Assembly: GCA_050950465.1 (NCBI GenBank)
Contig: JBMNHQ010000002.1
Coordinates: 33,670 to 97,669, forward strand
Origin: Candidatus Nanosyncoccaceae bacterium
GTDB lineage: Bacteria; Patescibacteriota; Saccharimonadia; Saccharimonadales; Saccharimonadaceae
Direction of reading: 5' to 3'
DNA length: 64,000 bases
Shown: positions 3,191-61,613 of the stretch, one piece after another
Layout: every line of letters begins with the position of its first letter
Numbering within the stretch: the first letter of the stretch is position 1
The notes under the pieces: model-generated
What the model saw: the letters and a program-made list of their open reading frames with translations, nothing else
What the model was told of the DNA's origin: nothing
Databases searched by the model: none
Position numbers and translations under genes: made by a program

Positions 3191-3228
3191 TCGAAGTACA
3201 GCAAGTTGCCTACTGGGAAAGGAGAGAA

Positions 3229-5001: not shown

Positions 5002-5025
5002 ACTGTGTTAGAATAGTGCTTAGTT

Positions 5026-6315: not shown

Positions 6316-6838
6316 AATTTACCTTTCTTAATCTACCTTCCTTGTTTAATTTATAAAAAGCATCAGGTTGATCCTTGATGTGATCGACAAATGGGATGCC
6401 ATTTAAGTGGTCAATTTCGTGCTGCAGTGTGCGCGCCATAAAACCGTCAGCTTTAAAAAAGATTGTTTTGCCATCTTCGGTTTTGGCTTTAACCTTAACT
6501 TTAGGGAAGCGCGCTACTTTACCGTAGAAATCAGGTACGCTTAAGCAGCCTTCAAAATCGACTTCTTTTCGTCCGCTAGCTTTAATAATTTCCGGATTAA
6601 TTAAAGCGGTAAAGTCTTGCTTGGTAGAATCTTCTCGAATGATAATAATCCGTCGCATTATGCCGATTTGTACCGCTGCTAGAGCGCTACTAATTTCGTT
6701 TGGTCTACTATTTTCCCAATCAATCGCGGCTTGTTTCATAGCAGCGATGTCTTTACGTACGCCATCGTCAATTCTAATTACTGGATTAGATTTTTGCCTA
6801 AGTCTCTCATCGGGTAAGGTGACGATTAATTTTTTCAT
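6278..6838 (-). CDS. def: Peptide deformylase
   Basis: Metal-ligand motifs EGCLSVP and QHEIDHLNG. I prefer the ATG at 6838 (MKKLIVTLPD...) over the ORF-track start at 6931, which runs into priA. Confidence 0.9.
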   Translation of the reverse strand: MKKLIVTLPDERLRQKSNPVIRIDDGVRKDIAAMKQAAIDWENSRPNEISSALAAVQIGIMRRIIIIREDSTKQDFTALINPEIIKASGRKEVDFEGCLSVPDFYGKVARFPKVKVKAKTEDGKTIFFKADGFMARTLQHEIDHLNGIPFVDHIKDQPDAFYKLNKEGRLRKVNYDKVVAAGIFRD

Positions 6839-6851
6839 AGCTTTAAGTATA

Positions 6852-8783
6852 TCAGAGAAGACTCTCGGGGTCGATATCGTATTGCCAATTAGTATTCGGC
6901 AATAATTTGATAATGTCCTGCAGAGTAGCACGTTTTTTAGATTTTATAATCAATTGCCAATTGTAGCGATTCCGTAACTTCTCGTAAAAAGCTGGTGCAG
7001 GCCCAATGACCTCGACTTGCGGATAGTCTTTTTTGATTTGATTAGCCAGCTTAGCCGTTTGAGAAATGCAACTAGCCTCAGTTTTATAAGCAACTTTTAA
7101 TTTTAGTAAATAGGTAAAAGGGGGATAATTTAACTGTTGCCGCTTTTTAATAGTTTCTTTATAGAATGCTTGATAGTCTTGTTCTAGACCAAGCTGAATA
7201 CTGGTCTGCTGTGGTTGATAAGTTTGGACAATGACTCGAGTGGGTTTGTCATCGCGGCCAACACGACCAACTACTTGGGCGATTTGCTGGAAATTACGTT
7301 CCTGAGTAATGTAGTCTGGTATAGACAAGCCGGCATCGGCCTGCACAATACCAACAGTTGATAGGTTGGGCAAATTTAAGCCCTTAGTAATAACTTGAGT
7401 ACCTATTAAAATATCAACCTCACCATCCACTAATTGTCGGTACATCTTGTCGATTGTCTGAAGTCTACTACTGTCTGCATCAAAGCGGGCGATTTTGGCT
7501 TTAGGAAATTGACGTCTTACTTCACGCTCAATTAGCTTAGTACCAATACCAGTGTTATCTATCTCACTTGATTGACAGACTGGACAATTAAGAGGGGCTC
7601 GCATCTTGTATCCGCAAAGGTGGCAAACTAGCTTAAAGTAATCGTGATGCAGGATCAGTGGCACGTCGCATTTTGGGCAGGTGGCTGCCCAGCCACAATC
7701 ACGACAAATTGTGGCACTGCTTGAACCACGGCGGTTATGAAAAATTAGGGCTTGCTCACCAATAATCAGGGAGTTTTTTATGGAGCTGAGTAGCTGATTA
7801 GAGAGAAAACTATGGTGGCTAAAATTAGATTTTTTTGTCATATCAACTAATTCCATTTGAGGTGGTTGAACAATTTTAGCTGGTTTAGTCAAAGTGATAA
7901 TCTGATTTTCAGTGGCTTTTGCTAGCCAGTAATCAGCTACCGGTGGCGTGGCACTGCCTAGAATCAGTTTTGCTCCTGAGTGCTTTGCTAATACGGCGGC
8001 TACACGGCTGGTTTGATAGCGCGGGTTCTTGTCCTGCTTTAAGCTAGATTCATGAAATTCATCAATCACAACTAATCCTAGATTTGGTACGGGTGCGAAA
8101 ATTGCCGATCTGGCGCCGATTACTACTACGGGATTTGTTGAATTGAGACAAGTCTGCCAGTTGATATGCCGTTCGGCTTCGGTTAGTCCAGAATGAAGTA
8201 GAATAATTTTCTCAAAATACGACTCGAATTGGTTTATTAACTGTGCAGTGAGGGCAATCTCTGGCACTATAATAATTACACTTTTTTGCTGATTAAGAAT
8301 TTGTTTAGCAATTTCAAGATAAACAGTTGTTTTACCCGAACCGGTTATGCCATGCAGCAATGTGGTGGTATTATTTGAGTGGATAATTTTATCTATAGCA
8401 ATTCTCTGTTCTGGAGTTGGTATAAGTTGATGGGTTTTGTGCTTTATCGACTGGTCGTGCTTTTTAAATCGACGTTTCTTAGTCAACCCAGTTGGCAGGG
8501 CAGATTTTAGAACTTGTGGTAGTGGTGAACAATAATATTGACTAATCCAATCTAAGGTCTTTACTAAACTACGGGGCAGAGGGGTGGAATCAACAGTAGT
8601 GACAATCTCTTTAGTGGTAAAGTTTGGTTTAGTAGCGGTTGCGAAAATTACACCTGTAGTTAGTTTTTTACCTAGTGGAACGACGACAACCTGCCCAATT
8701 GGAAGCTTGCTGACATAATGGTATGTCAGAAGATCTTGGTTTTTAACTGCCAGCTGACTGGTTGCCACTAAATAATAGTGCAT
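6852..8783 (-). CDS. priA: Primosomal protein N' (replication restart helicase PriA)
   Basis: Walker A GITGSGKT, a DEFH box, and the Cys-rich zinc insertion CRDCGW..CPKCD..CHLCG..CPVCQ typical of PriA. Confidence 0.9.
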   Translation of the reverse strand: MHYYLVATSQLAVKNQDLLTYHYVSKLPIGQVVVVPLGKKLTTGVIFATATKPNFTTKEIVTTVDSTPLPRSLVKTLDWISQYYCSPLPQVLKSALPTGLTKKRRFKKHDQSIKHKTHQLIPTPEQRIAIDKIIHSNNTTTLLHGITGSGKTTVYLEIAKQILNQQKSVIIIVPEIALTAQLINQFESYFEKIILLHSGLTEAERHINWQTCLNSTNPVVVIGARSAIFAPVPNLGLVVIDEFHESSLKQDKNPRYQTSRVAAVLAKHSGAKLILGSATPPVADYWLAKATENQIITLTKPAKIVQPPQMELVDMTKKSNFSHHSFLSNQLLSSIKNSLIIGEQALIFHNRRGSSSATICRDCGWAATCPKCDVPLILHHDYFKLVCHLCGYKMRAPLNCPVCQSSEIDNTGIGTKLIEREVRRQFPKAKIARFDADSSRLQTIDKMYRQLVDGEVDILIGTQVITKGLNLPNLSTVGIVQADAGLSIPDYITQERNFQQIAQVVGRVGRDDKPTRVIVQTYQPQQTSIQLGLEQDYQAFYKETIKKRQQLNYPPFTYLLKLKVAYKTEASCISQTAKLANQIKKDYPQVEVIGPAPAFYEKLRNRYNWQLIIKSKKRATLQDIIKLLPNTNWQYDIDPESLL

Positions 8784-16498: not shown

Positions 16499-19400
16499 TT
16501 GAAATTAGTTACTCGCAAACTAACTAAGTTTCAACCTAAACTTAAATCAAGTTTTAGGTTAGGGTTTAAGTTTGGCTTCAAGATTCACACTAAACACAAA
16601 ACCTCACAAATATTACGTAGTGGTATTATATTAACTTCTCTTATACTTATTACTTTCTTAACACCCATGTTAAAGAAAACGTTTCAACCTCAAACAGTCA
16701 GTGCTGAAACTGTCACTAAGACTTGGCAGTTAAATCAAAACTCTGGCTATAACTACGACTACAACAACTACGAAATCGAACAAACTGCTACTGGGGCTCA
16801 GCTTAAACAACTACCAAGTTCGATTACTTTAACTGCGGATGAGGATAATTTGCTTGAGAGTTGGGGTCTAAGCGCTGGAACTGGGGTTGTCTCAATTATC
16901 GACGACCCATCTAGTGGCGGCACAGGTAAGGTTTATAGCGCCACTGGTCGTAATACTTTATACTCCAAATTTTATATACCGATTAACCCTGACCTCACTT
17001 ATACCCTAAATGGTAGATTCAAATCAGTTGGGGTGGGTGGGGAATCTAGGATATATTTTGGGCTTTATCCTAGCACTAAGCTCTATAATCAGTATAGTGC
17101 ACATAGTCGTCGCGAATATTTGGCTTTTGGTGATACTGCTACCATTTCTAATTACGACGATTTAACTATTACAGTTCAGCCTAGCGCTGACTTGTCGACT
17201 TGGAACCAGGGTGGGGTTGATGTCAGTCATAGACGCCTCGTAGGCTTTTATTTTGACGGTCAGACCAATAAGCTACCAGATTTTATCATACGCCCTCAGG
17301 GAATGGTTCTGAGTGATGTTGACCCAGCTCAAGGAGCTTATTCGACTGCTAGTGGCACGACTATCAATCTTAACGTACCGATTCCACCAGAAGTGCAGAC
17401 TAAAATAATTGCAGGAACAACTAAAATTAAGAACCATGCGGATGGTGCAGCTTATCTTTATGCGGCAGCCTATAACTCATTAGTTCCCACGTCGTCGTAT
17501 GCCAACTTTTCTGGTGCTGTAACTGGCACAAATACTAATTTAATTATTGCACACAATCTGTTTCCTTACGAGACCAATTGGGCGAAAATAGGCCTTATAT
17601 TAAATTATAATCAGGACGAAAACTTCACTACTAACTTCGACGACATCTCTCTCACCATCACTGGCTCTCAACCAATGTATTCATGGCAGTCACCAGCTAT
17701 TGGGCCACCATATAGTCAGTATGTCAGTGGCCAACTAATATCCATGAGTCATACCCTTGGTTCTGGCTCATCAGACAGTGTTAAATACCAAATCTCATTA
17801 GATGATGGCAAAAGTTGGTTGTATTACAACACAACCACTAACGCCTGGGAAAGTGACCTGTCTCAGCACATAGCTAACACAGAGAACCTTTATAGTACTC
17901 CTCTTATTCGTGACCATGGTGCTAACAAAGCCAATACTATCGACGAAATCAACGCTAACCTAAACAAATTACCAGCTACCGATGGTATCAAATTCAAATG
18001 GCGAGCCTTCCTAGAATCCAACGGCACACAGCAAGTTGAACTCCAATCAGTTACCCTTACGGCTAATAACCTTGATCCAACTATCACATCCGTCACACCT
18101 AGCATTGGTCAAACCACTGGTGGTGATACTATCACTATACGTGGCAGTGGCTTCTCTAACGATGAGTTTGAGTACTTTGTTGGTACTTGTGGTATGACTA
18201 AAAGCGGCAAGCTTTACTGCTGGGGTGATAATAGCCGTGGTAAGTTAGGTGATGGTACTTTCGTTTCTCGATCTGACAAACGTCCAATCGCTCAAGGTGA
18301 AGTTCCTATTACCACAATTTTTACACAAATCGTTAATAGCTGGTATCACATGTGTGCCCTTGGCGACGATAACGAAATCTACTGCTGGGGTGACAATCAA
18401 TATGGCCAACTAGGGGATAACACTTATGACAATCGTAATATTCCAACCAAAGTCAACAAAGGTGCTATCCCAGCTGGTGCTAAAATTGCCAGTATCTCGA
18501 CCGGCTTTCATCACACTTGTGTCTTAACTCAAGATGACAAAATGTATTGCTGGGGTCTAAATGATACTGGCCAACTGGGTGATGGCACTACCGACAATAG
18601 TCCTCTGCCAGTTGAGGTTAATCGCGGAGCCATTCCTACATCGGTGAGAATTAGAAGTCTACAAACAGGCTGGATGTCTAGTTGTGTCCTAGCGGGCGAT
18701 AATAATGTCTACTGCTGGGGAGACAATCGATACGGCCAGCTTGGTGATGGTACTACTGGCAGTAAGGCATCTCCAGTGCTTTTGTCTCAGGGCCAGCGCG
18801 ATCCGAGCTTTAATATTTCTCAATTATCTACAGGGGCCCACCATGCCTGTATAAAAGACAGTGATAATAAGAGCTACTGCTGGGGATTAAATACCTATGG
18901 TCAACTTGGCGATGGTACTTTGTTCAACAAAACTAGCCCAACAGCTGTTACTCAGGGGGATATGCCCAATCAAGACATTAAGCAAGTTGTGGCTGGTTAT
19001 CGGAATACTTATGTTATTGGCTCCGACGATAAGCTCTATGTCTGGGGACACAATGAACGTGGTTCGGTAGGTGACGGGACTTTTACAAACAGAAGCGCCC
19101 CAACTCTGACTCTATTGCCATATAGCTTGGGCACGGTTGTCAGTATGGATCAGTTTGCCTTTCGTAGTGTCGCTGTTTTGTCTAACAATCAAGTATACGC
19201 TTGGGGAGTAGCCAGTGGCTTTCTTGGCGACATTGTGTCGGGAGATCAACCTCTTCCTGTCCGCGCCAGTCGTTCATCTAACCAAGTCAAATTCGACAAC
19301 ACCTACGCACCCTACGTTGAGCGCATCTCACCATATAAACTACGAGTCAGAAACCCAGCACACGATGAGGGTATAGTAAGTGTCACCGCTACCAACTCCA

Positions 19401-22400
19401 CTGGCGAGACTACCACCAAAGCCGATTCTTACACCTACGAAAACCCCACCACACCAGAGATAACTAGCATCTCACCCAGCGAAGGTCTGATTTACGGTGG
19501 CGAAGAAGTCACTATCACTGGCATTAATTTAGATAATATGAAGTGGAAACAGGTGGCAGCTGGAGGCTCTCATGCTTGTGCTATTGGACTAGATAATAAT
19601 GTTTATTGCTGGGGACTAAACAGCTTTGGTCAACTTGGCAATGGTAACAACAACAACTCTAATATTCCCGTTGCTATTTCCCAAGGTGATATACCTACTA
19701 GTGTGACGATTCAGCAACTCTCGGCTGACAGCTATCATACCTGCGCTCTTGGTTCAGACAATAAAGCTTATTGCTGGGGGCGGAACAATTATGGCCAACT
19801 CGGTGATGGCAATAGTGGTTCTAGCGCTGATAAATCTACTCCAGTCGCCGTTCTTCAGGGCGCCATCCCAACTGGCGTCACCATTCAGCAAATCTCGGTT
19901 GGTGGCTCTCACACCTGCGTCCTTGGTTCAGACAATAAAGCTTATTGCTGGGGAAATAATTACCATGGCCAGCTTGGTAATAACAAGAGTGGTGGTAGTC
20001 AATTCTCGTACGATAATAATATTGATTCTTCAACTCCAGTTGCTGTTATCCAAGATAATGTCCCTACCGATATAGTTTTCCAACAAATTACAGTCGGTGG
20101 CGGTCATACCTGCGCTCTTGGTTCAGATAATAAAGCTTATTGCTGGGGGAGTAATAGTAATGGTCAGCTTGGTGATGGCACTACTAATAACAAAACCACT
20201 CCAGTCGCCGTTCTTCAGGGCGCCATCCCAACTGGCGTCACTATCCAGCAACTCTCGGCTGGCACCTCTCATACCTGCGCTCTTGGTTCAGACAATAAAG
20301 CTTATTGCTGGGGGCGGAACAATTATGGCCAACTCGGTGATGGCAATAGTGGTTCTAGCGCTGATAAATCTACTCCAGTCGCCGTTCTTCAGGGCGCCAT
20401 CCCAACTGGCGTCACCATTCAGCAAATCTTGGTTGGCACCTCTCACACCTGCGCTCTTGGTTCAGACAATAAAGCTTATTGCTGGGGATTTAATTGGGGT
20501 GGTCAGCTTGGTGATGGCACTACTAATAACAAAACCACTCCAGTCGCCGTTCTTCAGGGCGCCATCCCAACTGGCGTCACCATTCAGCAAATCTTGGTTG
20601 GCACCTCTCACACCTGCGCTCTTGGTTCAGACAATAAAGCTTATTGCTGGGGGAATAATAATAACGGTCAGCTTGGTGATAGCACTATAACCAACCGTAT
20701 TACTCCAGTACCTGTTAAAACCGCCAATTATTCGGTTGCTTTCGGTGATATTTCAACTCAACAAATTGTCTCATTAGTTAATACTCAAGTGAAAGTTGTT
20801 GCGCCAGCTCATCAATTTGGTGTCAAAGATATTAGTTTGACTCATACTATAATGAATCATACGAGTAGCACATTATCCAGTGCGTATAACTATATTAATC
20901 CGTCAGCACCTGTAATTGCGTCAGTTAATCCTAAAACTGGAGTGTCTGCTGGTAACATTAATGCGACAGTTCAAGTTGAAAATTCGTCGAACCTTAAAAT
21001 AGCTGATGATCTTGTGCAAATAACCACTGGCACCTCTCATACCTGCGCTCTTGGTTCAGACAATAAAGCTTATTGCTGGGGGCGGAACAATTATGGCCAA
21101 CTCGGTGATGGCAATAGTGGTTCTAGCGCTGATAAATCTACTCCAGTCGCCGTTCTTCAGGGCGCCATCCCAACTGGCGTCACCATTCAGCAAATCTCGG
21201 TTGGTGGCTCTCACACCTGCGTCCTTGGTTCAGACAATAAAGCTTATTGCTGGGGATTTAATTGGGGTGGTCAGCTTGGTGATGGCACTACTAATAACAA
21301 AACCACTCCAGTCGCCGTTCTTCAGGGCGCCATCCCAACTGGCGTCACCATTCAGCAAATCTCGGTTGGTGGCTCTCACACCTGCGCTCTTGGTTCAGAC
21401 AATAAAGCTTATTGCTGGGGATATAACAATCATGGTCAACTTGGTGATGGCGCTGGTAGTGCTGGTGATTATAAAACCACTCCAGTCGCCGTTCTTCAGG
21501 GCGCCATCCCAACTGGCGTCACTATCCAGCAACTCTCGGCTGGCACCTCTCATACCTGCGCTCTTGGTTCAGACAATAAAGTATATTGCTGGGGATACAA
21601 CTTTCTTGGTCAACTTGGTGATGGCACCAAGACTAATCGCACCACTCCTGTCGCCGTTTCCCAAGGTGATATACCTACTAGTGTAACGATTCAGCAACTC
21701 TCAGTTGGCAGCAACCATGCTTGTGTTCTTGACTCAAATAACCAGGTTTACTGTTGGGGACATGGTGGCTACGGTCAGCTCGGTGATGGCACTACGATCG
21801 ATAGCACTAGTCCAACTGCCGTTCTTTCTGGTGATATACCTACTAGCGTAACGATTCAGCAAGTTTTTGCTCTCGGAGCAGAAATATACAATGCTTATAC
21901 CTGCGCTCTTGGTTCAGACAATCGTGTCTATTGTTGGGGTTGGAATAGCTACGGTCAACTCGGTGATGGTACTGCTACTCAACGTAATGTCCCTACGGTC
22001 ATCCTTCCGGGTGTTATTCCTATGGATGTTATTTTTCAACAAATTGTTGGTGGCGGTTTTCACACCTGTGCCCTCGACTCAACTGGTAAAGCCTATTGTT
22101 GGGGACACAACGAATATGGTCAACTCGGCACCAACCAAGTAGGCGACCCAGACGATCTCACAGACATCTCAGCCAGTCGTTACACCCCCGCCTATGTCAT
22201 GATGAAGTCCGATCCACTGGAAGTAAGCTTTGGTACCACTGCTGAACACACCGCCGGCACAGCCGGACTAGCTACAGCCGTCTCATCATTCACCGTACCC
22301 GATGGCCAATACTACATCCCAGGCACCACTACACTAACTCTTAACACTCCAGCCCACTCTGTTGGTCCCGTAGCCGTAGTAGTTAAGAACGCTGATGGTC

Positions 22401-22540
22401 AATCTAGCTCTAACACCATCGCCGCTGATGACTCTAATAAGTACACCTACACCAGTGTCCCCGATGCCCCAACTAACCTAACCGCCAATGCTACACCAGT
22501 CACTAACCAAGGCATCAACTACAACATCAATCTAAGCTGA
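16499..22540 (+). CDS. Giant surface protein, copy 1: membrane anchor + beta-rich N domain + three IPT/TIG domains each split by a 7-bladed RCC1 propeller; reading frame stopped by TGA inside the FN3 domain
   Basis: TTG start after GGGGAAGGG. Basic N-terminus plus a hydrophobic helix (IILTSLILITFLTPML). There are 21 RCC1 signatures (YCWGxNxxGQLGDG) arranged 7+7+7, and IPT strands (ITSVTPSIGQTTGGDTITIRGSGF ... VKFDNTYAPYVERISPYKLRVRNPAH..YTY). TGA at 22538-22540. Confidence 0.9.
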   Translation: MKLVTRKLTKFQPKLKSSFRLGFKFGFKIHTKHKTSQILRSGIILTSLILITFLTPMLKKTFQPQTVSAETVTKTWQLNQNSGYNYDYNNYEIEQTATGAQLKQLPSSITLTADEDNLLESWGLSAGTGVVSIIDDPSSGGTGKVYSATGRNTLYSKFYIPINPDLTYTLNGRFKSVGVGGESRIYFGLYPSTKLYNQYSAHSRREYLAFGDTATISNYDDLTITVQPSADLSTWNQGGVDVSHRRLVGFYFDGQTNKLPDFIIRPQGMVLSDVDPAQGAYSTASGTTINLNVPIPPEVQTKIIAGTTKIKNHADGAAYLYAAAYNSLVPTSSYANFSGAVTGTNTNLIIAHNLFPYETNWAKIGLILNYNQDENFTTNFDDISLTITGSQPMYSWQSPAIGPPYSQYVSGQLISMSHTLGSGSSDSVKYQISLDDGKSWLYYNTTTNAWESDLSQHIANTENLYSTPLIRDHGANKANTIDEINANLNKLPATDGIKFKWRAFLESNGTQQVELQSVTLTANNLDPTITSVTPSIGQTTGGDTITIRGSGFSNDEFEYFVGTCGMTKSGKLYCWGDNSRGKLGDGTFVSRSDKRPIAQGEVPITTIFTQIVNSWYHMCALGDDNEIYCWGDNQYGQLGDNTYDNRNIPTKVNKGAIPAGAKIASISTGFHHTCVLTQDDKMYCWGLNDTGQLGDGTTDNSPLPVEVNRGAIPTSVRIRSLQTGWMSSCVLAGDNNVYCWGDNRYGQLGDGTTGSKASPVLLSQGQRDPSFNISQLSTGAHHACIKDSDNKSYCWGLNTYGQLGDGTLFNKTSPTAVTQGDMPNQDIKQVVAGYRNTYVIGSDDKLYVWGHNERGSVGDGTFTNRSAPTLTLLPYSLGTVVSMDQFAFRSVAVLSNNQVYAWGVASGFLGDIVSGDQPLPVRASRSSNQVKFDNTYAPYVERISPYKLRVRNPAHDEGIVSVTATNSTGETTTKADSYTYENPTTPEITSISPSEGLIYGGEEVTITGINLDNMKWKQVAAGGSHACAIGLDNNVYCWGLNSFGQLGNGNNNNSNIPVAISQGDIPTSVTIQQLSADSYHTCALGSDNKAYCWGRNNYGQLGDGNSGSSADKSTPVAVLQGAIPTGVTIQQISVGGSHTCVLGSDNKAYCWGNNYHGQLGNNKSGGSQFSYDNNIDSSTPVAVIQDNVPTDIVFQQITVGGGHTCALGSDNKAYCWGSNSNGQLGDGTTNNKTTPVAVLQGAIPTGVTIQQLSAGTSHTCALGSDNKAYCWGRNNYGQLGDGNSGSSADKSTPVAVLQGAIPTGVTIQQILVGTSHTCALGSDNKAYCWGFNWGGQLGDGTTNNKTTPVAVLQGAIPTGVTIQQILVGTSHTCALGSDNKAYCWGNNNNGQLGDSTITNRITPVPVKTANYSVAFGDISTQQIVSLVNTQVKVVAPAHQFGVKDISLTHTIMNHTSSTLSSAYNYINPSAPVIASVNPKTGVSAGNINATVQVENSSNLKIADDLVQITTGTSHTCALGSDNKAYCWGRNNYGQLGDGNSGSSADKSTPVAVLQGAIPTGVTIQQISVGGSHTCVLGSDNKAYCWGFNWGGQLGDGTTNNKTTPVAVLQGAIPTGVTIQQISVGGSHTCALGSDNKAYCWGYNNHGQLGDGAGSAGDYKTTPVAVLQGAIPTGVTIQQLSAGTSHTCALGSDNKVYCWGYNFLGQLGDGTKTNRTTPVAVSQGDIPTSVTIQQLSVGSNHACVLDSNNQVYCWGHGGYGQLGDGTTIDSTSPTAVLSGDIPTSVTIQQVFALGAEIYNAYTCALGSDNRVYCWGWNSYGQLGDGTATQRNVPTVILPGVIPMDVIFQQIVGGGFHTCALDSTGKAYCWGHNEYGQLGTNQVGDPDDLTDISASRYTPAYVMMKSDPLEVSFGTTAEHTAGTAGLATAVSSFTVPDGQYYIPGTTTLTLNTPAHSVGPVAVVVKNADGQSSSNTIAADDSNKYTYTSVPDAPTNLTANATPVTNQGINYNINLS
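18175..19265 (+). repeat. RCC1 propeller 1 of copy 1 (7 blades, approximate bounds)
   Basis: Seven (Y/V/A)(C/V/A)WG..N..G.LGDG motifs: KLYCWGDNSRG, EIYCWGDNQYG, KMYCWGLNDTG, NVYCWGDNRYG, KSYCWGLNTYG, KLYVWGHNERG, QVYAWGVASG. Confidence 0.85.
19541..20720 (+). repeat. RCC1 propeller 2 of copy 1 (7 blades, approximate bounds)
   Basis: Seven CWG blades. Several are nearly identical at the DNA level to each other and to blades of propeller 3. Confidence 0.85.
21011..22140 (+). repeat. RCC1 propeller 3 of copy 1 (7 blades, approximate bounds)
   Basis: Seven CWG blades, from KAYCWGRNNYG through KAYCWGHNEYG. Confidence 0.85.
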
Positions 22541-23263
22541 ACAGCACCAGTCAGTGATGGCTATAGTCCTATCACTGACTATCTCATAGAGTACTGCATT
22601 AGTAATAGCTCTGGTGTCTGTAACCCATCTCCAGAAGGGGACTGGACTATCTACAATGATGGCACCAGCACTAATACCAGTACTACCATAAGCTCTCTCC
22701 CAGCTAGCCCATCAGCCTACTATACCTTCAGAGTCTCAGCTATTAACAACATCGGCACTAGCCAACCTAGTAACACTCCTACAGTCCAAACTAGCTTCAT
22801 CACACTGTCTTCATCAGTTGACACTGTCACTATTAACATCAACCCATCAGCCAGTGGTAGTACTAATACCTTCTCATCCACTACCCATAATCTCATAGCC
22901 AACTCTAACACCAACTACAACATCACACTATCTATGCCTAGTACCACCCAAACTCTATCCAATGGCACTCACACCATTAACCCCACATCAGCTAATGCCT
23001 CCAATCCTCAATTAGACCTCCCAGCCAACACTTGGGGTTACCGACTCAATAACACTACCTTTGGCACCACTACTACCATAGAGACTAATGTCCCTAATAG
23101 CCAATACACTTGGGCTCAAGTTCAACAGAGCACCACACCAGACCTCATCTACACTGGCACAGGCAATCACACCTTCCCAGTCTACTATGGCTTAAAGGCT
23201 AGCCACACCCAAGCCTCTGGTACCTATACTGGCACTGTTACCTATACAGCTACGACGCAGTAG
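22541..23263 (+). pseudogene. In-frame 3' continuation of copy 1 (rest of FN3 domain + Thr-rich C-terminal domain) cut off by the single TGA
   Basis: There are 723 nt (241 codons) in the same frame as 16499, with no further stop until TAG at 23261-23263. The segment is near-identical to 54015-54737 of copy 2 at a constant offset of 31474. Confidence 0.85.
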
Positions 23264-47430: not shown

Positions 47431-50400
47431 TTGAAATTAGTTACTCGCAAACTAACTAAGTTTCAACCTAAGCTAAATAAAGCAACACAGTTTAGGTTAG
47501 GGTTTAAGTTTGGGTTTAAGTCTAAGGCTAACTCAGTTCAAAGCTCTAGCCCTAACTCTAATCTAAGCCTAAAGACTAATTATGGTTTTAAGATAAAAAC
47601 CAAACACCAAACCAACCAAACCCTAAGACTAGGACTAACACTAGCTTCACTCATACTCATAACCTTCCTATCACCTATACTAAAGAAGACCTTCACTCCA
47701 CACACAACTAACGCTACTACCATAACTAAAACATGGCAGTTAAACCAGAATATTCCCACTCAATACGATTACAACACACATGAAATTGAACAAACCGCTA
47801 CTGGCGCTAGACTAAAACAACTACCAAGCTCCATCACACTTACGGCTGATGAAGAGAGTTTCTTTGATGTGTGGGAGCCATATTATGGCGGTGGGCAAAC
47901 TTCAATAGTTGACGACCCTTCCAGTGGTGGTAATGGTAAAGTGTATAATGTTGCTAATCATGTTCAGCTTTTCTCTAATTTCTTTGTACCAATTAATCCA
48001 GATTTTACTTATACTATAAGTGGAAGATTTAAGTCAGTTGGTGCAGGTGGTGAATCTATGGTGTATTTTGGTCTTGCACCATATGATAAAAATTATTATC
48101 AACCAAACTTTATACAGCGGAGTGATTACCGTGCTGTTGGCGATACGGCCACTATTGCTAATTATGATGATTCAACTATCACAGTTCAAGCTGGCGTAGA
48201 TTTATCGACTTGGAATCAAGGTGGAGTGGATTTAGCTGTTGATCGTTTAATTGGCTTCTATTTTGATGGTCAGACTGACAAATTACCAGATTTTGTCATA
48301 TCGCCTCAAGAGTCTGGTTATTATTATAGTACAGATCCGACTAGAGGGGCTTATTCCACTGCTAGTGGTACAACCATTAATCTTAATACACCGATTCCGC
48401 CTGAAGTGCAGGCTAAAATAAACTTAGATGTAACGAAGATTAAGAATCATATGGGCGACTCTACATATCTTTATACAGCAGCTAAGTCAAAACTTATTCC
48501 CGCTAATATATACACTACCTATTCGGGTAGTATAACTGGCATAAATACTAGCTTGGGTCAAAATATACATAACTCATTCCCATACGAAACCAATTGGGCA
48601 AAAATAGTTATCTTACTCAACTATGGTCAAGATCATAATTATGCTACCAACTTCGACGACATCTCTCTCACTATCACTGGTTCTCAACCAATGTATTCAT
48701 GGCAGTCACCAGCTATTGAGCCACCATATAGCCAATACGTTAGTGGTCAACTAACATCTATGAGTCACACGCTTGGCTCTGGCTCATCAGACAGTGTTAA
48801 ATACCAAATCTCATTAGATAATGGCAAAAGCTGGCTTTATTACAACACGACCACTAACGCTTGGGAAAGTGACTTATCTCAGCGAGTATCAAATAGTAGT
48901 ATTTATCGCATTACTACCATCCGTGACCACGGCGCCCTCAAAGCCAATACTATCGAAGAAATCAACGCCAACTTAAACAAGTTACCAGCCACCGATGGCA
49001 TCCAATTCAAATGGCGCGCCTTCTTAGAGTCCAACGGCACTCAGCAGGTTGAACTCCAATCAGTCACTCTCACAGCCAATAACCTTGATCCAACTATCAC
49101 ATCCGTCACACCTAGCATTGGTCAAACCACTGGTGGTGATACTATCACTATACGTGGCAGTGGCTTCTCTAACGATGAGTTTGAGTACTTTGTTGGTACT
49201 TGTGGTATGACTAAAAGCGGCAAGCTTTACTGCTGGGGTGATAATACTTGTGGCCAACTAGGTGATGGCACTTTTACTAGCCGTTTAGATAAACGACCAA
49301 TCGCTCAAGGTGAAGTCCCAACCACTACAACCTTCACTCAGATTGTTAAAGGCTGGCTACACATGTGTGCTCTTGGCGACGATAACGAAATCTACTGCTG
49401 GGGTGACAATCAATATGGCCAATTGGGCGATGGTGCTTTCGACAACCGCAACATTCCAACTAAAGTCAACAAAGGCGCCATACCAGCCAGTGCTAAAATA
49501 ACCTCTATTTCTACAGCTTATTACCACACCTGTGCTCTAACCCAAGACGATAAGATGTATTGTTGGGGGCAAAATGACCTCGGTCAACTCGGTGACGGTA
49601 CCACTGACAATCGCTCACTACCAGTTGAAGTTAACCGTGGTAATATCCCAACATCAGTTAGAATCAGAAGTCTGCAGACTGGCTGGAAGCATAGCTGTGT
49701 CCTCGCTGGCGATAATAACGTCTATTGTTGGGGTCGAAACACTCTTGGTCAGCTCGGTGATGGTACTACTACTCATAGATCATCTCCAGTCCTTGTAATT
49801 CAAGGTCAGCGTGACCCTAGCTATAATATTACTCAATTATCCGTCGGTGCTCACTATGCCTGTATCAAGGATACTGATAGTAAAGCCTATTGTTGGGGTC
49901 GAAATGTTGATGGTGAATTAGGTAGCGGAATTACATCAAACTACGAAACTAGCCCAGTCGCTATTGCCCAAGGAGTTATGCCTGATCAAAATATTAAAAC
50001 CATCATGGCAGGCTATTGGAGCACTTATGCGATTAGCTCTGATGACAAACTTTATGCTTGGGGGCATAACGGAGACGGTTCCTTAGGTGATGGCACCACT
50101 ATAAATCGCAATACACCAATATTAGTCTCGTTACCGTACAGTTCTGGTGTAAATATCTCTCATACTAATTTCTGGTGGCGCTCTGCTCGAGTTACTGTGT
50201 CTAATGGACATCATTATATTTGGGGATTAAACAATCATGGCCAATTAGGTGATGGCACACAAACTAGCTACCACACACCAACCCACATCCGCTACTCCAC
50301 TAACCAAGTCAAGTTTGGTGACAACTACGCACCACAAGTTGAGCGTATTTCACCATATGAACTGCGTGTCCGAAACCCAGCGCATGAAGCTGGAGTAGTA

Positions 50401-50553
50401 GGAGTAACAGCCACCAACTCAACTGGCGAGACTACCACCAAAGCCGATTCTTACACCTACGAAAACCCCACCACACCAGAAATAACTAGCATCTCACCTA
50501 ACGAAGGTCTGATCTACGGTGGCGAGAAGTCACTATATCTGGCACTAATTTAG
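47431..50553 (+). CDS. Giant surface protein, copy 2, 5' part (anchor, N domain, IPT1 with nested 7-blade RCC1 propeller, start of IPT2), ended by frameshift
   Basis: TTG start in a context identical to copy 1 and collinear with copy 1 throughout. After ...ITSISPNEGLIYGGE the frame runs out (KSLYLALI, TAG 50551-53) because of a 1-nt deletion relative to copy 1. Confidence 0.9.
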   Translation: MKLVTRKLTKFQPKLNKATQFRLGFKFGFKSKANSVQSSSPNSNLSLKTNYGFKIKTKHQTNQTLRLGLTLASLILITFLSPILKKTFTPHTTNATTITKTWQLNQNIPTQYDYNTHEIEQTATGARLKQLPSSITLTADEESFFDVWEPYYGGGQTSIVDDPSSGGNGKVYNVANHVQLFSNFFVPINPDFTYTISGRFKSVGAGGESMVYFGLAPYDKNYYQPNFIQRSDYRAVGDTATIANYDDSTITVQAGVDLSTWNQGGVDLAVDRLIGFYFDGQTDKLPDFVISPQESGYYYSTDPTRGAYSTASGTTINLNTPIPPEVQAKINLDVTKIKNHMGDSTYLYTAAKSKLIPANIYTTYSGSITGINTSLGQNIHNSFPYETNWAKIVILLNYGQDHNYATNFDDISLTITGSQPMYSWQSPAIEPPYSQYVSGQLTSMSHTLGSGSSDSVKYQISLDNGKSWLYYNTTTNAWESDLSQRVSNSSIYRITTIRDHGALKANTIEEINANLNKLPATDGIQFKWRAFLESNGTQQVELQSVTLTANNLDPTITSVTPSIGQTTGGDTITIRGSGFSNDEFEYFVGTCGMTKSGKLYCWGDNTCGQLGDGTFTSRLDKRPIAQGEVPTTTTFTQIVKGWLHMCALGDDNEIYCWGDNQYGQLGDGAFDNRNIPTKVNKGAIPASAKITSISTAYYHTCALTQDDKMYCWGQNDLGQLGDGTTDNRSLPVEVNRGNIPTSVRIRSLQTGWKHSCVLAGDNNVYCWGRNTLGQLGDGTTTHRSSPVLVIQGQRDPSYNITQLSVGAHYACIKDTDSKAYCWGRNVDGELGSGITSNYETSPVAIAQGVMPDQNIKTIMAGYWSTYAISSDDKLYAWGHNGDGSLGDGTTINRNTPILVSLPYSSGVNISHTNFWWRSARVTVSNGHHYIWGLNNHGQLGDGTQTSYHTPTHIRYSTNQVKFGDNYAPQVERISPYELRVRNPAHEAGVVGVTATNSTGETTTKADSYTYENPTTPEITSISPNEGLIYGGEKSLYLALI
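49189..50300 (+). repeat. RCC1 propeller 1 of copy 2 (7 blades, approximate bounds)
   Basis: Seven CWG/AWG/IWG blade motifs, from KLYCWGDNTCG to HHYIWGLNNHG. Confidence 0.85.
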
Positions 50554-50573
50554 ATAATTTTAAGTTTAAACAA

Positions 50574-53500
50574 ATGGCTAAATCAGGTGGACCAACTAAT
50601 CACAACTGTGTTATTGGTCTAGATGGTTGGGTTTATTGTTGGGGGCGTAATGAATCTGGTCAACTTGGTACTGGCGATACCAATAGCCGCTCTACTCCAG
50701 TTGCTATCCAGCGTGGTGAAATACCAGCCGATGCTACTATTGAGTCTCTCTACATTGGTGGACGCCATGGTTGCGTTATTACTGACGCAGGCGATGCTTA
50801 CTGTTGGGGTGAAAACAACTCTGGTCAACTTGGTAACGGTCTATCAGGTGGGAGGGGTGACTCATTTGACCTTGGTATTGATCAGTCTACTCCAGTAGCT
50901 GTCCAACGAGGTATTATACCAACTAACGTTAAATTTTCCCAAATGGCCTTAGGCGGTGATGCTAGCGTCAATGGTTCTCCACCTGAGCACACCTGCGCCC
51001 TCGACTCAGCAGGTCAAGCCTACTGTTGGGGATATAACTACTATGGCCAACTCGGCACTGGTAATACTACTAGCTCCAATATCCCAGTTGCCGTCCAGTC
51101 TAATGACCTTGGCCACGCTCTCTATGGTAAGACTATTACCCAAATCACGGCTGGCTACTCTCACACCTGCGCCCTCGACTCAGCTGGCCAAGCCTACTGT
51201 TGGGGAAATAATTACCATGGTCAACTTGGTACTGGTGTGAGTGGTGGTGTCTCATATTATTATGATGACGGTATTGACTTCAACGTCCCAGTCCCCATCA
51301 AAGCTAATGACCCAACTGACGCTCTCCATAACAAAACCATCACCCAAGTCATAGCTGGTCGGCAGCACACCTGCGCTCTCGACTCAGACGGTAAGGTCTA
51401 CTGCTGGGGGTATAATAACTATGGCCAACTCGGCACTGGTAACGCCACTGACTTCAACGTCCCAGTCCCCATCAAAGCTAATGACCCAACTGACGCTCTC
51501 CATAACAAAACCATCACCCAAGTCATAGCTGGTCGGCAGCACACCTGCGCTCTCGACTCTACTGGCAAAGCCTACTGTTGGGGATATAATCAATATGGTC
51601 AACTCGGCACTGGTAATAGCACTAGCTCCAATGTACCAGTTTCCGTCAAAGCTGACCAACCAACCGATGTTCTCTACGGTAAAATTATTACGCAAATCAC
51701 AGCTGGTGGCTATGACACCTGCGCTCTCGACTCAGCTGGCCAAGCCTACTGTTGGGGATATAACTACTATGGCCGGCTCGGCATTGGTAATAATACTAGC
51801 TCTAATGTCCCACTACTAGTCAAACCAGGCTATCTCATCTACTTTGGTGGTACACCAACTAGCTTGGGTCTCTATCCAACTGGTAATAACACTAAATTAA
51901 CCAGTATTGAACTTAAAGTCATATCTCCAGCTGTCAGTGGACCGGCTACTGTTAATATTACTCTTCACTCTACTACTACCAACACTACCTATAACACCCT
52001 CAACCAAGTCTACACTTTCATTAGTCCACCAACTCCAATTATCACCCAAGTCATTCCTAACGCTGGCTCAGCTAATGGCAATACTGCCATAAGAGCTACT
52101 AACTTATCTAACCTCAAGTTAGCCGATGATTTTACTCAAATTACAGCTGGTGGTAGTCACACCTGCGCTCTCGACTCAGATAATAAAGCTTATTGTTGGG
52201 GAGGTGGCTACTCTGGTCAACTCGGCACTGGTAATACTAACAACTCTAATGTCCCAGTCCTCGTCAAAGCTGATGACCCAACTGACGCTCTCTATGGTAA
52301 AACCATTGCGCAAATCACCGCTGGCAGCTCTCACACCTGCGCCCTCGATTCCACCGGCCAAGCCTACTGTTGGGGGCATAACCAGTATGGCCAACTCGGC
52401 ACTGGTGATACCACTAACTCCAACGTCCCAGTCGCCGTCCAGTCTAACGACCCAACTGACGCTCTCTATGGTAAAACTATTACTCAAATCACGGCTAGCC
52501 AGCACCACACTTGCGCTACTGACTCCACTGGTCAAGCTTACTGTTGGGGAAGAAACGGCTTTGGCCAACTCGGTAATGGCGATACTAACGACTCCAATGT
52601 CCCAGTTCTAGTTGAAGCTAATAATCCAACTGATGCTCTCTATGGTAAAACCATTGCGCAAATCACCGCTGGCACCTCTCACACCTGCGCTCTCGATTCC
52701 ACCGGCCAAGCCTACTGTTGGGGATATAACGGCTCTGGCCAACTCGGCACTGGTGATACCACTAACTCCAACGTCCCAGTCGCCGTCCAGTCTAACGACC
52801 CAACTGACGCTCTCTATGGTAAAACTATTACTCAAATCACGGCTAGCCAGCACCACACTTGCGCTACTGACTCCACTGGTCAAGCTTACTGTTGGGGAAG
52901 AAACGGCTTTGGCCAACTCGGTAATGGCGATACTAACGACTCCAATGTCCCAGTTCTAGTTGAAGCTAATAATCCAACTGATGCTCTCTATGGTAAAACT
53001 ATTACCCAAATCACGGCTGGCACCTCTCACACCTGCGCTCTCGATTCCACCGGCCAAGCCTACTGTTGGGGATATAACGGCTCTGGCCAACTCGGCACTG
53101 GTGATACCACTAACTCCAACGTCCCAGTCGCCGTCCAGTCTAACGACCCAACTGACGCTCTCTATGGTAAAACTATTACTCAAATCACGGCTAGCCAGCA
53201 CCACACTTGCGCTACTGACTCCACTGGTCAAGCTTACTGTTGGGGAAGAAACGGCTTTGGCCAACTCGGTAATGGCGATACTAACGACTCCAATGTCCCA
53301 GTTCTAGTTGAAGCTAATAATCCAACTGATGCTCTCTATGGTAAAACTATTACCCAAATCACGGCTGGCACCTCTCACACCTGCGCCCTCGATTCCACCG
53401 GCCAAGCCTACTGTTGGGGGCATAACCAGTATGGCCAACTCGGCACTGGTGATACCACTAACTCCAACGTCCCAGTCGCCGTCCAGTCTAACGACCTAAC

Positions 53501-54737
53501 TGACGCTCTCTATGGTAAAACCATTGCGCAAATCACCGCTGGCAGCTCTCACACCTGCGCCCTCGACTCCGCTGGCCAAGCCTACTGTTGGGGATATAAC
53601 TACTATGGCCGGCTCGGCACCAAACAATCGGGCATCGACTTATCTATGCAGCGTTACACCCCCGCCTATGTCATGATGAAGTCCGATCCACTGGAAGTCA
53701 GCTTTGGCACTACAGCTGAACACACCGCCGGCACAGCTGGACTAGCCACAGCCGTCTCGTCCTTTGATGTTCCAACTGGTCAGTATTACATCCCAGGCAC
53801 CACTACACTAACCCTTAACACTCCAGCTCACTCTGCTGGTCCCGTAGCCGTAGTAGTAAAGAACGCTGATGGTCAATCCAGCTCTAACACCATTGCCGCT
53901 GACAACTCTAATAAGTACACCTACACCAGTGTCCCGGATAGCCCAACCAACCTAACCGCCAATGCTACACCAGTCACTAACCAAGGCATCAACTACAACA
54001 TCAATCTAAGCTGGACAGCACCAGTCAGTGATGGCTATAGTCCAATCACTGACTATCTCATAGAGTACTGCATTAGTAATAGCTCTGGTGTCTGTAACCC
54101 ATCTCCAGAAGGGGACTGGACTATCTACAATGATGGCACCAGCACTAATACCAGTACTACCATAAGCTCTCTCCCAGCTAGCCCATCAGCCTACTATACC
54201 TTCAGAGTCTCAGCTATTAACAACATCGGCACTAGCCAACCTAGTAACACTCCTACAGTCCAAACTAGCTTCATCACACTGTCTTCATCAGTTGACACTG
54301 TCACTATTAACATCAACCCATCAGCCAGTGGTAGTACTAATACCTTCTCATCCACTACCCATAATCTCATAGCCAACTCTAACACCAACTACAACATCAC
54401 ACTATCTATGCCTAGTACCACCCAAACTCTATCCAATGGCACTCACACCATTAACCCCACATCAGCTAATGCCTCCAATCCTCAATTAGACCTCCCAGCC
54501 AACACTTGGGGTTACCGACTCAATAACACTACCTTTGGCACCACTACTACCATAGAGACTAATGTCCCTAATAGCCAATACACTTGGGCTCAAGTTCAAC
54601 AGAGCACCACACCAGACCTCATCTACACTGGCACAGGCAATCACACCTTCCCAGTCTACTATGGCTTAAAGGCTAGCCACACCCAAGCCTCTGGTACCTA
54701 TACTGGCACTGTTACCTATACAGCTACGACGCAGTAG
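50574..54737 (+). CDS. Giant surface protein, copy 2, 3' part (rest of IPT2 with 7-blade propeller, IPT3 with 9-blade propeller, FN3, C-terminal domain)
   Basis: The frame is open from 50502. Translated from 50526 it reads EVTISGTNLDNFKFKQMAKSGG..., collinear with copy 1 (EVTITGINLDNMKWKQVAAGG...). The ATG at 50574 is internal and has no SD. Contains 16 CWG blades and an FN3 domain (about 53931-54262) with the LSWTAP tryptophan intact. Confidence 0.9.
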   Translation: MAKSGGPTNHNCVIGLDGWVYCWGRNESGQLGTGDTNSRSTPVAIQRGEIPADATIESLYIGGRHGCVITDAGDAYCWGENNSGQLGNGLSGGRGDSFDLGIDQSTPVAVQRGIIPTNVKFSQMALGGDASVNGSPPEHTCALDSAGQAYCWGYNYYGQLGTGNTTSSNIPVAVQSNDLGHALYGKTITQITAGYSHTCALDSAGQAYCWGNNYHGQLGTGVSGGVSYYYDDGIDFNVPVPIKANDPTDALHNKTITQVIAGRQHTCALDSDGKVYCWGYNNYGQLGTGNATDFNVPVPIKANDPTDALHNKTITQVIAGRQHTCALDSTGKAYCWGYNQYGQLGTGNSTSSNVPVSVKADQPTDVLYGKIITQITAGGYDTCALDSAGQAYCWGYNYYGRLGIGNNTSSNVPLLVKPGYLIYFGGTPTSLGLYPTGNNTKLTSIELKVISPAVSGPATVNITLHSTTTNTTYNTLNQVYTFISPPTPIITQVIPNAGSANGNTAIRATNLSNLKLADDFTQITAGGSHTCALDSDNKAYCWGGGYSGQLGTGNTNNSNVPVLVKADDPTDALYGKTIAQITAGSSHTCALDSTGQAYCWGHNQYGQLGTGDTTNSNVPVAVQSNDPTDALYGKTITQITASQHHTCATDSTGQAYCWGRNGFGQLGNGDTNDSNVPVLVEANNPTDALYGKTIAQITAGTSHTCALDSTGQAYCWGYNGSGQLGTGDTTNSNVPVAVQSNDPTDALYGKTITQITASQHHTCATDSTGQAYCWGRNGFGQLGNGDTNDSNVPVLVEANNPTDALYGKTITQITAGTSHTCALDSTGQAYCWGYNGSGQLGTGDTTNSNVPVAVQSNDPTDALYGKTITQITASQHHTCATDSTGQAYCWGRNGFGQLGNGDTNDSNVPVLVEANNPTDALYGKTITQITAGTSHTCALDSTGQAYCWGHNQYGQLGTGDTTNSNVPVAVQSNDLTDALYGKTIAQITAGSSHTCALDSAGQAYCWGYNYYGRLGTKQSGIDLSMQRYTPAYVMMKSDPLEVSFGTTAEHTAGTAGLATAVSSFDVPTGQYYIPGTTTLTLNTPAHSAGPVAVVVKNADGQSSSNTIAADNSNKYTYTSVPDSPTNLTANATPVTNQGINYNINLSWTAPVSDGYSPITDYLIEYCISNSSGVCNPSPEGDWTIYNDGTSTNTSTTISSLPASPSAYYTFRVSAINNIGTSQPSNTPTVQTSFITLSSSVDTVTININPSASGSTNTFSSTTHNLIANSNTNYNITLSMPSTTQTLSNGTHTINPTSANASNPQLDLPANTWGYRLNNTTFGTTTTIETNVPNSQYTWAQVQQSTTPDLIYTGTGNHTFPVYYGLKASHTQASGTYTGTVTYTATTQ
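50580..51830 (+). repeat. RCC1 propeller 2 of copy 2 (7 blades of ~58 aa, approximate bounds)
   Basis: Seven YCWG.N..G.LG.G motifs. The blades carry an extra DPTDAL(Y/H)(G/N)KTI segment not present in copy 1. Confidence 0.85.
52248..53639 (+). repeat. Tandem array of four 348-bp units (two RCC1 blades each) inside propeller 3 of copy 2
   Basis: The AATGTCCCAGT unit starts recur at 52248, 52596, 52944 and 53292, an exact 348-bp period. The two central units differ at only a few bases, and the flanking units are more diverged. Confidence 0.9.
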
Positions 54738-59216: not shown

Positions 59217-60516
59217 AGCTATTGTGATTGCTGGTTATGGGCTAGAAGGGCAGAGTGCTTATAAGTATTTAAGTCGATTATATCCGTCGGCTAAGTTTAC
59301 GATTTATGATCAAAAAGCTACACCCAAGATGCCAATTCCAAAAGGGGTAGAGTTAGTTTGTGGCGATGAGGTTGACTTTGGAGCAATAAAAGCCGATATG
59401 ACTATTAGAACACCGTCGATTTCGCCTAAACGATTTTCTTCCGAGGCTCACGTAACTTCTGTGACGAATCTGTTTTTTGAGCGCTGTCCAGCGCCAATTA
59501 TTGGTGTGACCGGTACAAAGGGTAAGGGTACGACTTGCGGTTTGATTACCGCAATTTTACAGGCGGCAGGTAACACGGTGCATCTAGTGGGTAATATTGG
59601 TAAGCCAGCTCTAGATACCCTAAACCAAATAAAATCGACTGATATTGTAGTCTATGAGCTAAGTAGCTTTCAGTTGTGGGATATGCAATATAGCCCAAAA
59701 GTAGCAGTAGTTCTAATGGTTGAACCTGATCACTTAGACATACATATCGATCAAAAAGAGTATGTTGAGTCCAAGGCTAATTTGCCTCGCCTTCAAGGTC
59801 CGGGTGATATAACAGTTTGCCACCCAACCAATAAATTGTCGAATCAAATTGCTAAAACTAGTCAGGGTAAAATAGTCCATTATGGTGTCGTTGATGACGG
59901 TGGGGCCTATGTTAAATCGAACAATTTTTTTGTTCATAACCAGATGATATGTCCAGTAAGTGATTTGACGATTGTAGGACAACACAATGTTGAGAATGCT
60001 TGTGCAGCAATCACGGCTGTACTTAGTTTTACGTCCAGTTGGCCGGCTATAGCACGGGGTCTAAAAGATTTTACAGGCTTGCCGCACCGTCTAAAATATC
60101 TGCGCACTTTACGAGGCGTAGATTACTATGACGATAATTATTCCACTCAGCCCGAGGCAGCAATCGTGGCCGTACGTGCCATAACACAACCAAAGATTCT
60201 TATCGCTGGTGGTCACGATAAGGGGGCGGACTTTACCCACTTGGCGGATGAAATACAAAAATCCGGTTCGGTTAAAAAAATCTTATTAATTGGCGACACT
60301 GCTAACAAAATTAAAACGGCATTAGAGCGAGTTGGTTTCACAAAAACGGAAATAATTCAGGGGAAAAATCTGAAAGAAATTGTTGTTTTGGCGCAATCGT
60401 ATGCAACTTCTGGGGATGTGGTACTAATGAGCCCAGCTTGTGCTAGTTTTGGACTGTTTCGTGATGCAACTGATCGGGGTGAGCAATTTATTCAAGCTGT
60501 GGCGGAGCTAAAATGA
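59209..60516 (+). CDS. murD: UDP-N-acetylmuramoyl-L-alanine--D-glutamate ligase
   Basis: Mur ligase P-loop GVTGTKGKGTT, central domain DHLD, and C-terminal PHRLKYL...AGGHDKG. Confidence 0.9.
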   Translation: MPKAIVIAGYGLEGQSAYKYLSRLYPSAKFTIYDQKATPKMPIPKGVELVCGDEVDFGAIKADMTIRTPSISPKRFSSEAHVTSVTNLFFERCPAPIIGVTGTKGKGTTCGLITAILQAAGNTVHLVGNIGKPALDTLNQIKSTDIVVYELSSFQLWDMQYSPKVAVVLMVEPDHLDIHIDQKEYVESKANLPRLQGPGDITVCHPTNKLSNQIAKTSQGKIVHYGVVDDGGAYVKSNNFFVHNQMICPVSDLTIVGQHNVENACAAITAVLSFTSSWPAIARGLKDFTGLPHRLKYLRTLRGVDYYDDNYSTQPEAAIVAVRAITQPKILIAGGHDKGADFTHLADEIQKSGSVKKILLIGDTANKIKTALERVGFTKTEIIQGKNLKEIVVLAQSYATSGDVVLMSPACASFGLFRDATDRGEQFIQAVAELK

Positions 60517-61613
60517 GTTTAAAGCAGGTAGCTGAGGCAATCTCTGAGTTAAAAGCTGAGATTTTACAGGCGGTTGGCCAGTTAGAAATTGACGCCAAAA
60601 GTAAAGAATTGGAGTCTTTGGACGCTAGGGTGGCGGACAGTTCAATCTGGAATGATGTCGAAAAGGCTCAGGCTTTGATTCGAAAGACTAACAATTTACG
60701 AGCTCAGATTGAGCCTTGGCAGGTATTAAGAACTCAAATAGTTGATCTGGATGAATTATTAAAAGAGATGGCCGATGAGTCTTTAGAACAGGAATTTACT
60801 AGTCAATTAAAAGGCCTGCAAGAGGATTTTAAAAAACTTAAAACTGACCTGTTGTTTAGTGGCGAATACGATGATCATAATGTTATTTTAAAAATCAGTT
60901 CTGGCGCCGGTGGTACCGAAGCACAAGATTGGGCATCGATGCTAGAGCGAATGTATTTACGTTGGTGTGAACGTTCAAACGTTAAAGCAGAGCTGATTGA
61001 TCGAAGTGTTGGTGAAGAGGCGGGTATAAAAAGCGCCACTTATGGTTTGAGTGGTGTTAATGTTTATGGTCGAATGAGAGGTGAGCACGGTGTTCATCGC
61101 TTGGTTCGTTTAAGCCCTTTCAATGCTGATAATTTGCGACAGACTAGTTTTGCCTTAGTAGAGATATTGCCGGATATTGATACGCCAGATGAAGTTGTGG
61201 TTGCTCCAGAGGATTTAAAGATTGATGTTTTTCGAGCTGGCGGTCATGGTGGACAAAGTGTCAACACGACCGACTCAGCAGTGCGAATTACTCATTTACC
61301 AACAGGATTAGTAGTGGCGATTCAAAATGAAAGGTCGCAATTACAAAATCGTGAAAAGGCTATGCAGATTTTACGTTCAAAATTGATTCAGATGCAGCTG
61401 GAGCAGAGTGCAGCCAGTATTAGTGAATTAAAAGCAACTGAGTCGGCTAGTTGGGGAGCACAAATTCGTAACTATGTCATGCATCCATACACTATGGTTA
61501 AAGATACTCGTACGAAATATGAAGAAAAAGACGTGACGGCGGTGTTGGATGGAAAAATCAATGAGTTTATGATGCGTTATCTGGAGTGGTCGGTGGCAAA
61601 TAGCTTGAAATAA
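60513..61613 (+). CDS. prfB: Peptide chain release factor 2, encoded in one continuous frame (no programmed +1 frameshift)
   Basis: SPF motif in HRLVRLSPFNA and GGQ in [24 protein letters not shown]. The N-terminal domain is contiguous with the rest. ATGA overlap with murD. Confidence 0.93.
   Translation: MSLKQVAEAISELKAEILQAVGQLEIDAKSKELESLDARVADSSIWNDVEKAQALIRKTNNLRAQIEPWQVLRTQIVDLDELLKEMADESLEQEFTSQLKGLQEDFKKLKTDLLFSGEYDDHNVILKISSGAGGTEAQDWASMLERMYLRWCERSNVKAELIDRSVGEEAGIKSATYGLSGVNVYGRMRGEHGVHRLVRLSPFNADNLRQTSFALVEILPDIDTPDEVVVAPEDLKIDVFRAGGHGGQSVNTTDSAVRITHLPTGLVVAIQNERSQLQNREKAMQILRSKLIQMQLEQSAASISELKATESASWGAQIRNYVMHPYTMVKDTRTKYEEKDVTAVLDGKINEFMMRYLEWSVANSLK

Follow-up and report, generated by a model that had tools for sequence, protein, structure and literature searches.

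A probable gene-breaking one-base deletion in one of two giant surface-protein genes of a Nanosyncoccaceae bacterium

The 64-kb stretch of DNA analysed here (the window), from the genome of an uncultured Saccharibacterium, holds two paralogous giant genes of ~7 kb, each predicted to encode a membrane-anchored surface protein. One of them, copy 2, has probably been broken by a genuine, recent and non-programmed 1-bp deletion. We regard this as an ordinary gene-breaking mutation in a fast-evolving surface-protein gene and propose no new mechanism. Its value for annotation is that two gene calls, of 1040 and 1387 aa, can be recognized as fragments of one gene of 2435 codons. Each paralog is interrupted, by one lesion that differs between them, and thus both giant RCC1/TIG genes are truncated in this Nanosyncoccaceae strain; a related strain keeps one intact. 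The features discussed below are listed in Table 1.

Table 1. Features of the two giant genes, with positions in the window
Feature	Position	Strand	Details
Giant gene copy 1	16499..23263	+	2254 codons if read through; listed ORF 16499..22540, 2013 aa
Homologous intact site in copy 1, GGCGAAGAAGTCACTATCACTGGC	19499..19522	+	From pattern match and alignment
In-frame TGA of copy 1	22538..22540	+	TGG in copy 2 and in the related strain; conserved fn3 Trp
Giant gene copy 2 as one gene	47431..54737	+	2435 codons with one A restored; full-length alignment to copy 1 and to the gene of the related strain
Upstream frame of copy 2, 1040 aa	47431..50553	+	Basic N-terminus, anchor, ~460-aa domain, complete TIG1 with nested 7-repeat RCC1 propeller, first ~22 residues of TIG2, KSLYLALI
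-1 frame continuation, 1411 open codons	50502..54737	+	Rest of TIG2 with RCC1, TIG3 with RCC1, fn3, C-terminal domain
Deletion site	50524..50525	+	One A of ancestral GAAGAAG gone, now G-AGAAG; from DNA alignments
Premature TAG closing frame 0	50551..50553	+	From the sequence and the ORF list
Internal ATG	50574..50576	+	Called start of 1387-aa ORF (50574..54737); NCBI MGI6612362.1

The deletion and the reading frames of copy 2

The original prediction was that copy 2 lacks one nucleotide relative to copy 1, and pairwise DNA alignment of the two bears this out: a lone gap of 1 nt separates GGCG from AGAAG in copy 2, and the two sequences agree at all of the 10 bases on its 5' side and the 12 on its 3' side. 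Read directly, copy 2 from 50521 is ggcgagaagtcactatatctggcactaatttagataattttaagttt / ggcgagaagtcactatatctggc, and its GGCG-AGAAG at 50521-50529 stands against GGCGAAGAAG in copy 1 (at 19499) and in the gene of the related strain, one A short of both; DNA alignment with the latter gene gives the same missing A. With up to 3 mismatches allowed, the sequence of the intact copy-1 site matches nowhere else in the window, and 0 matches would be expected by chance. A second, compensating indel can be ruled out, as the frames are collinear up to the gap from both sides. The base had been described as lost from a homopurine run. The missing base is confirmed, but the site is not a homopolymer: it is a two-A step, in which GAAGAAG has become GAGAAG, and in the local sequence GCGAGAAGTC the longest run is AA.

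Frame 0 ends at a TAG 27 nt past the deletion, and its last 8 residues, KSLYLALI, are out of frame. The -1 frame is closed by a TAA at 50499-501 and then open from 50502 to the TAG at 54735-37. It reads ...EVTISGTNLDNFKFKQMAKSGG, collinear with EEVTITGINLDNMKWKQVAAGG of copy 1, and continues the copy 1 protein residue for residue (EVTISGTNLDNFKFKQ in copy 2, EEVTITGINLDNMKWKQ in copy 1). Both copy 1 and the related gene keep in register with frame 0 as far as GLIYGGE, and with frame -1 from EVTI on. When one A is inserted, translation gives a single ORF of 2435 codons with zero internal stops. The locus can therefore be read as one gene, as had been proposed, and translation also agrees with the proposed stop of the upstream frame and the proposed opening of the next.

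In the public record, the 1387-aa piece is deposited under the accession in Table 1 as a 'fibronectin type III domain-containing protein', and the same 1040-aa gene was called by JGI on a metagenome contig described below (L001). Exact-product look-ups for the 1040-aa and 1387-aa pieces returned no record.

Relatives and the ancestral state

The related strain is represented by ENA ERZ2647956 NODE_24 (L038 and L007 in our numbering), with flanks 89-92% identical to the window at the nucleotide level. At its copy-1 locus, L038 carries an uninterrupted gene of 2340 aa (62..7084), whose junction reads GGTGGCGAAGAAGTCACTAT and is collinear with repaired copy 2. Comparison with orthologs had been suggested as a check; this gene is intact, with GAAGAAG. 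Since copy 1 and L038 both have GAAGAAG, the intact state is ancestral and the deletion derived; this polarity rests on the paralog and on L038 at the copy-1 locus, the copy-2 ortholog on L007 being 6160 N. That run of N, at 2853-9014 of L007 in the data used, fills the copy-2 locus between SerRS and HPF.

Other searches brought in little from further relatives. Contigs of relatives reached via the LysRS and FtsZ neighbours break in the first ~300 codons, at the 5' end, of the giant genes. The repaired junction (192 aa), used as a protein query, matched only generic RCC1 proteins of up to 336 aa, none of them across the junction, and the N-terminal domain as query had 3 weak matches. The related-locus search of genome and metagenome contigs confirmed no relatives. 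Scans of the metagenome and genome collections for the exact pattern TACGGTGGCG(N)AGAAGTCACTAT gave 0 matches to either allele, although the sequence does occur in a JGI contig.

Domain architecture

Near the N-terminus, at about aa 65-84, the hydrophobic stretch LRLGLTLASLILITFLSPIL is a candidate membrane anchor. The N-terminal domain of ~460 aa has no match in Pfam or NCBIfam; it has 233 homologs in the representative library, many of them within other giant proteins, and we infer that it is lectin-like. In Pfam, RCC1 accounts for 7 stretches of the upstream piece and 16 of the downstream piece, and TIG and fn3 are matched as well. Scores are 204-592 bits for RCC1 (with 7, 16 and 19 stretches) and 41-60 bits for TIG, all above the Pfam gathering score, and the matches to RCC1, RCC1_2 and WD40_RLD have E-values down to 1e-240.

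The TIG matches span profile positions 1-29 only. In a splice test, the TIG1 stub of ~30 aa before propeller 1 was joined to the ~55 aa after it (STNQVKF...YTYEN; window 49087-50520), and the match became full-length (1-84 of 84, E = 5.7e-15). Thus, each RCC1 propeller is nested in a TIG domain. From N- to C-terminus, the predicted surface protein comprises a membrane anchor, the lectin-like domain, three such TIG/propeller modules and then fn3. The deletion lies in the N-terminal stub of TIG2, at about residue 17 of the domain and directly before propeller 2; the prediction had correctly placed the break inside the second IPT/TIG domain.

Parts of the RCC1 arrays are near-perfect tandem repeats, at 52186-53594 and also at 20104-20687, 21027-21790 and 51275-51790. 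Copy 2 has a 348-bp unit, equal to two blades, in 4 copies with 94% match; the other periods are 165, 174 and 339 bp.

The in-frame TGA of copy 1

Copy 1 had been taken as the reference for copy 2. It is a sound reference at the junction, where it is intact, but that it is itself interrupted downstream, by the TGA at 22538-40, had been overlooked. This codon replaces the TGG of NINLSWTAP, which encodes the conserved Trp of fn3. Past it, the frame of copy 1 is open for 240 more codons (723 nt) to a TAG at 23261-63. The same TGA is present in an independent contig, L021 (JGI 3300060803), and every contig covering the site shows it.

The window also encodes RF2: prfB is found at 60513..61613 (TIGR00020, 447.5 bits with a cut-off of 370). 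Because of this, and because TGA terminates 11 of the 50 ORFs in the window, that of copy 1 included, we read TGA as a true stop here. Recoding of the TGA, selenocysteine and an alternative code were considered for copy 1 and rejected, with RF2 present, TGA a common terminator and the aligned codon TGG. As a separate observation, prfB matches the whole profile as a single uninterrupted ORF. Programmed +1 frameshifting is common in bacterial prfB genes; since a single ORF matches the whole profile, this one is without it.

Within the tail of copy 1 past the TGA is an ORF of 109 aa (22934-23263, NCBI MGI6612336.1), which we take to be untranslated. The downstream neighbour of copy 1 is an ORF at 23639-26155 for a SpaA-like protein (SpaA isopeptide-pilin-related). 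It contains a 99-bp tandem repeat at 25213-25817 (5.1 copies, 82% match), and the protein has 838 aa here and 706 aa in the related strain.

Similarity between the copies

Identity between the two copies is highly uneven. Their last ~795 nt (22475-23269 and 53949-54743) contain 2 differences, one of which is the TGA/TGG, and the TIG1 tract is 97% identical. In the ~100 nt 5' of the deletion identity is about 96%, and on the 3' side it drops to about 76%. The N-terminal domain is 63-72% identical, and the two copies share all of the 25 nt that precede the start codon (47406-47475 compared with 16474-16543). In propeller 1, the proteins are 64-86% identical between the copies and 32-43% identical to the gene of the related strain. 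By these comparisons, the copies evolve in concert, with the paralogs exchanging sequence. Contig L021 matches the window exactly from its position 309 on, and its positions 1-308 (window 22005-22312) are a mosaic that includes a copy-2-like segment and a second one resembling neither copy. This suggests that recombinant haplotypes of the giant gene exist in the population.

Alternative explanations

Whether the deletion is in the DNA can be judged from other assemblies. Six metagenome contigs, from JGI and Logan samples, were reached through the SerRS gene just upstream, and each matches the window at 100% identity throughout the overlap; one, L001, covers the deletion site. This contig (JGI sample 3300060680, recorded in 2 samples) has 0 mismatches over 14,688 nt, window 35983-50670, and carries the same short allele as the window. 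It is a 27.5-kb contig, whereas the window comes from a MAG contig of 494,950 bp, so that the assemblies are different, the samples being possibly of the same study system. L001 stops at window 50670, at the start of the near-identical repeats, as a short-read assembly would; the near-perfect tandem repeats of the RCC1 arrays explain why short-read contigs end at about this point. A sequencing or assembly artefact, with a true genome that has GAAGAAG and an intact gene, was already among the alternatives named in the original prediction. It gains some force from the 495-kb MAG contig, which spans the near-perfect 348-bp repeats: so long a contig across repeats suggests a long-read assembly of the MAG, a type prone to indels. 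However, the identical allele in the separately assembled L001 makes a random sequencing error unlikely, and the five further contigs from other samples, being 100% identical, indicate that this part of the window was sequenced accurately. All six agree with the window base for base. The AA step, not being a homopolymer, also argues against an artefact, as does the rest of the window, where no other gene has a frameshift and the other ORFs look whole, with lengths that match the gene calls of relatives. We therefore consider an artefact quite improbable.

If the short allele is real, the two pieces could still be used by the cell, through a -1 shift within 50502-50550 or through re-initiation at ATG 50574 that yields a second product. 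Recoding would give a protein with GLIYGGEEVTISGTNLDNFK as the peptide spanning the junction. In its favour are the 1411 codons (4.2 kb) of open downstream frame, which continued translation would also predict, the position of the ATG only 20 nt past the TAG, and a moderately stable hairpin predicted at about 50568-50645 (MFE -28 kcal/mol). The fold of 50527-50650, at -28 kcal/mol, is nevertheless not significant (z = -1.94; 7 of 200 shuffles as stable), and direct reading of the 49-nt overlap, 50502-50550, finds neither an X XXY YYZ heptamer nor an A/T run for transcriptional slippage. No GGAGG-like upstream stimulator is present near the junction, and no Rfam family reaches the gathering score anywhere in the 64-kb window, which has no tRNA genes either. 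Moreover, copy 1 and the related strain, at its copy-1 locus, encode the same junction in one frame. For re-initiation, there is no SD motif of the GGAG/AGGA/AAGG type within 25 nt upstream of ATG 50574 (about 60% of the ORFs in the window have one), nor does the + strand have a promoter-like site immediately before it; at the position of this Met, copy 1 has Val and L038 has Ile, and the product would be without the N-terminal anchor on which the rest of the protein relies. Functional recoding or re-initiation is accordingly the least probable explanation and would be very surprising. Programmed frameshifting is rejected for want of a heptamer and a significant structure, and transcriptional slippage for want of an A/T run, in line with the prediction, which had found no slippery heptamer or obvious structure and had treated the called start as an internal Met without an SD. 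Classical phase variation is also rejected, there being no simple-sequence repeat tract at the site. A broader form of switching would be a reversible off-state, repaired by slippage or by gene conversion from the other paralog, with surface proteins switched in the population. Each paralog does have one different null lesion, the paralogs do exchange sequence (in the near-identical 3' ends, the TIG1 tract and the ~100 nt 5' of the deletion), and the copy-1 locus occurs in L021 as a mosaic haplotype that includes a copy-2-like segment. Still, the absence of a simple-sequence repeat speaks against slippage, homology of only about 76% on the 3' side of the deletion makes a poor conversion substrate, and in all covering contigs the copy-2 site has only the short allele and the copy-1 site only TGA, with no on-allele observed. 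We judge such an off-state improbable, if a little less so than an artefact. Its more elaborate form is a recombination-based on/off system, in which the lesions lie in or beside tracts kept near-identical by gene conversion and each copy is the repair template for the other; this is more doubtful still than an artefact, although it would, if true, give an episymbiotic Saccharibacterium a means of varying its surface or attachment apparatus. The alternatives originally left open (a mutation, an error or a phase-off allele) are thus narrowed, with the mutation favoured and both an error and a repeat-driven phase-off allele unlikely.

Consequences of the deletion

The preferred explanation is a genuine deletion, and loss of an A from GAAGAAG in copy 2 brings frame 0 to its stop at the TAG. 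The cell would then make a truncated protein of 1040 aa, with the anchor, the N-terminal lectin-like domain and one complete TIG/RCC1-propeller module. The two distal TIG/propeller modules, fn3 and the C-terminal domain would be absent, and the product would end in eight junk residues; GLIYGGEKSLYLALI at the C-terminus would be its mark. The 4.2-kb downstream part is probably translated poorly or not at all, because ATG 50574 is without an SD motif, and its product would also be without an export signal. The lesion is likely to be young, because the downstream frame has acquired no stop yet.

The truncated product, with a complete anchor-plus-propeller module, may work as a shorter surface protein. 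More generally, the pattern is consistent with host-interaction surface proteins that turn over rapidly in episymbionts.

Comparison with known systems

Nanosyncoccaceae are clade G3 of the Saccharibacteria, and an RCC1 propeller is present on the minor pilin PilX2 of the Saccharibacterium TM7x (PMC11623550). With bacterial RCC1-repeat surface proteins, PilX2 included, the giant protein shares RCC1 propellers, here too in a Saccharibacterium and on a protein predicted to be extracellular. The giant protein, however, is no pilin: it has ~2300-2400 aa, an N-terminal anchor, propellers nested in TIG domains, and fn3 followed by a C-terminal domain without assignment.

Contingency loci are similar in that a surface-protein gene of a hypervariable family is switched off by a 1-nt change of frame. 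In copy 2, by contrast, neither a homopolymer nor a short tandem repeat is present at the GAGAAG site, and no alternative allele has been seen; the one other contig that covers it, L001, has the off allele. Programmed -1 frameshifting, as in dnaX and the transposases of IS elements, likewise involves overlapping frames (0 and -1) that jointly encode one collinear protein. Copy 2 differs from these in having no slippery heptamer, no significant structure and no internal SD-like stimulator, and the shift is absent from the paralog and from L038.

Frameshift-disrupted genes, whether pseudogenes or truncated alleles, share with copy 2 a single indel, homology that continues in another frame, a stop soon after and no recoding signal. 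Here too, the pieces have been called as separate genes, one in the public record (1387 aa) and one by JGI (1040 aa). Copy 2 departs from the typical case in that its downstream 4.2 kb is still fully open, decay not having begun, and in that its truncated product retains a whole anchor-plus-propeller module and may be functional.
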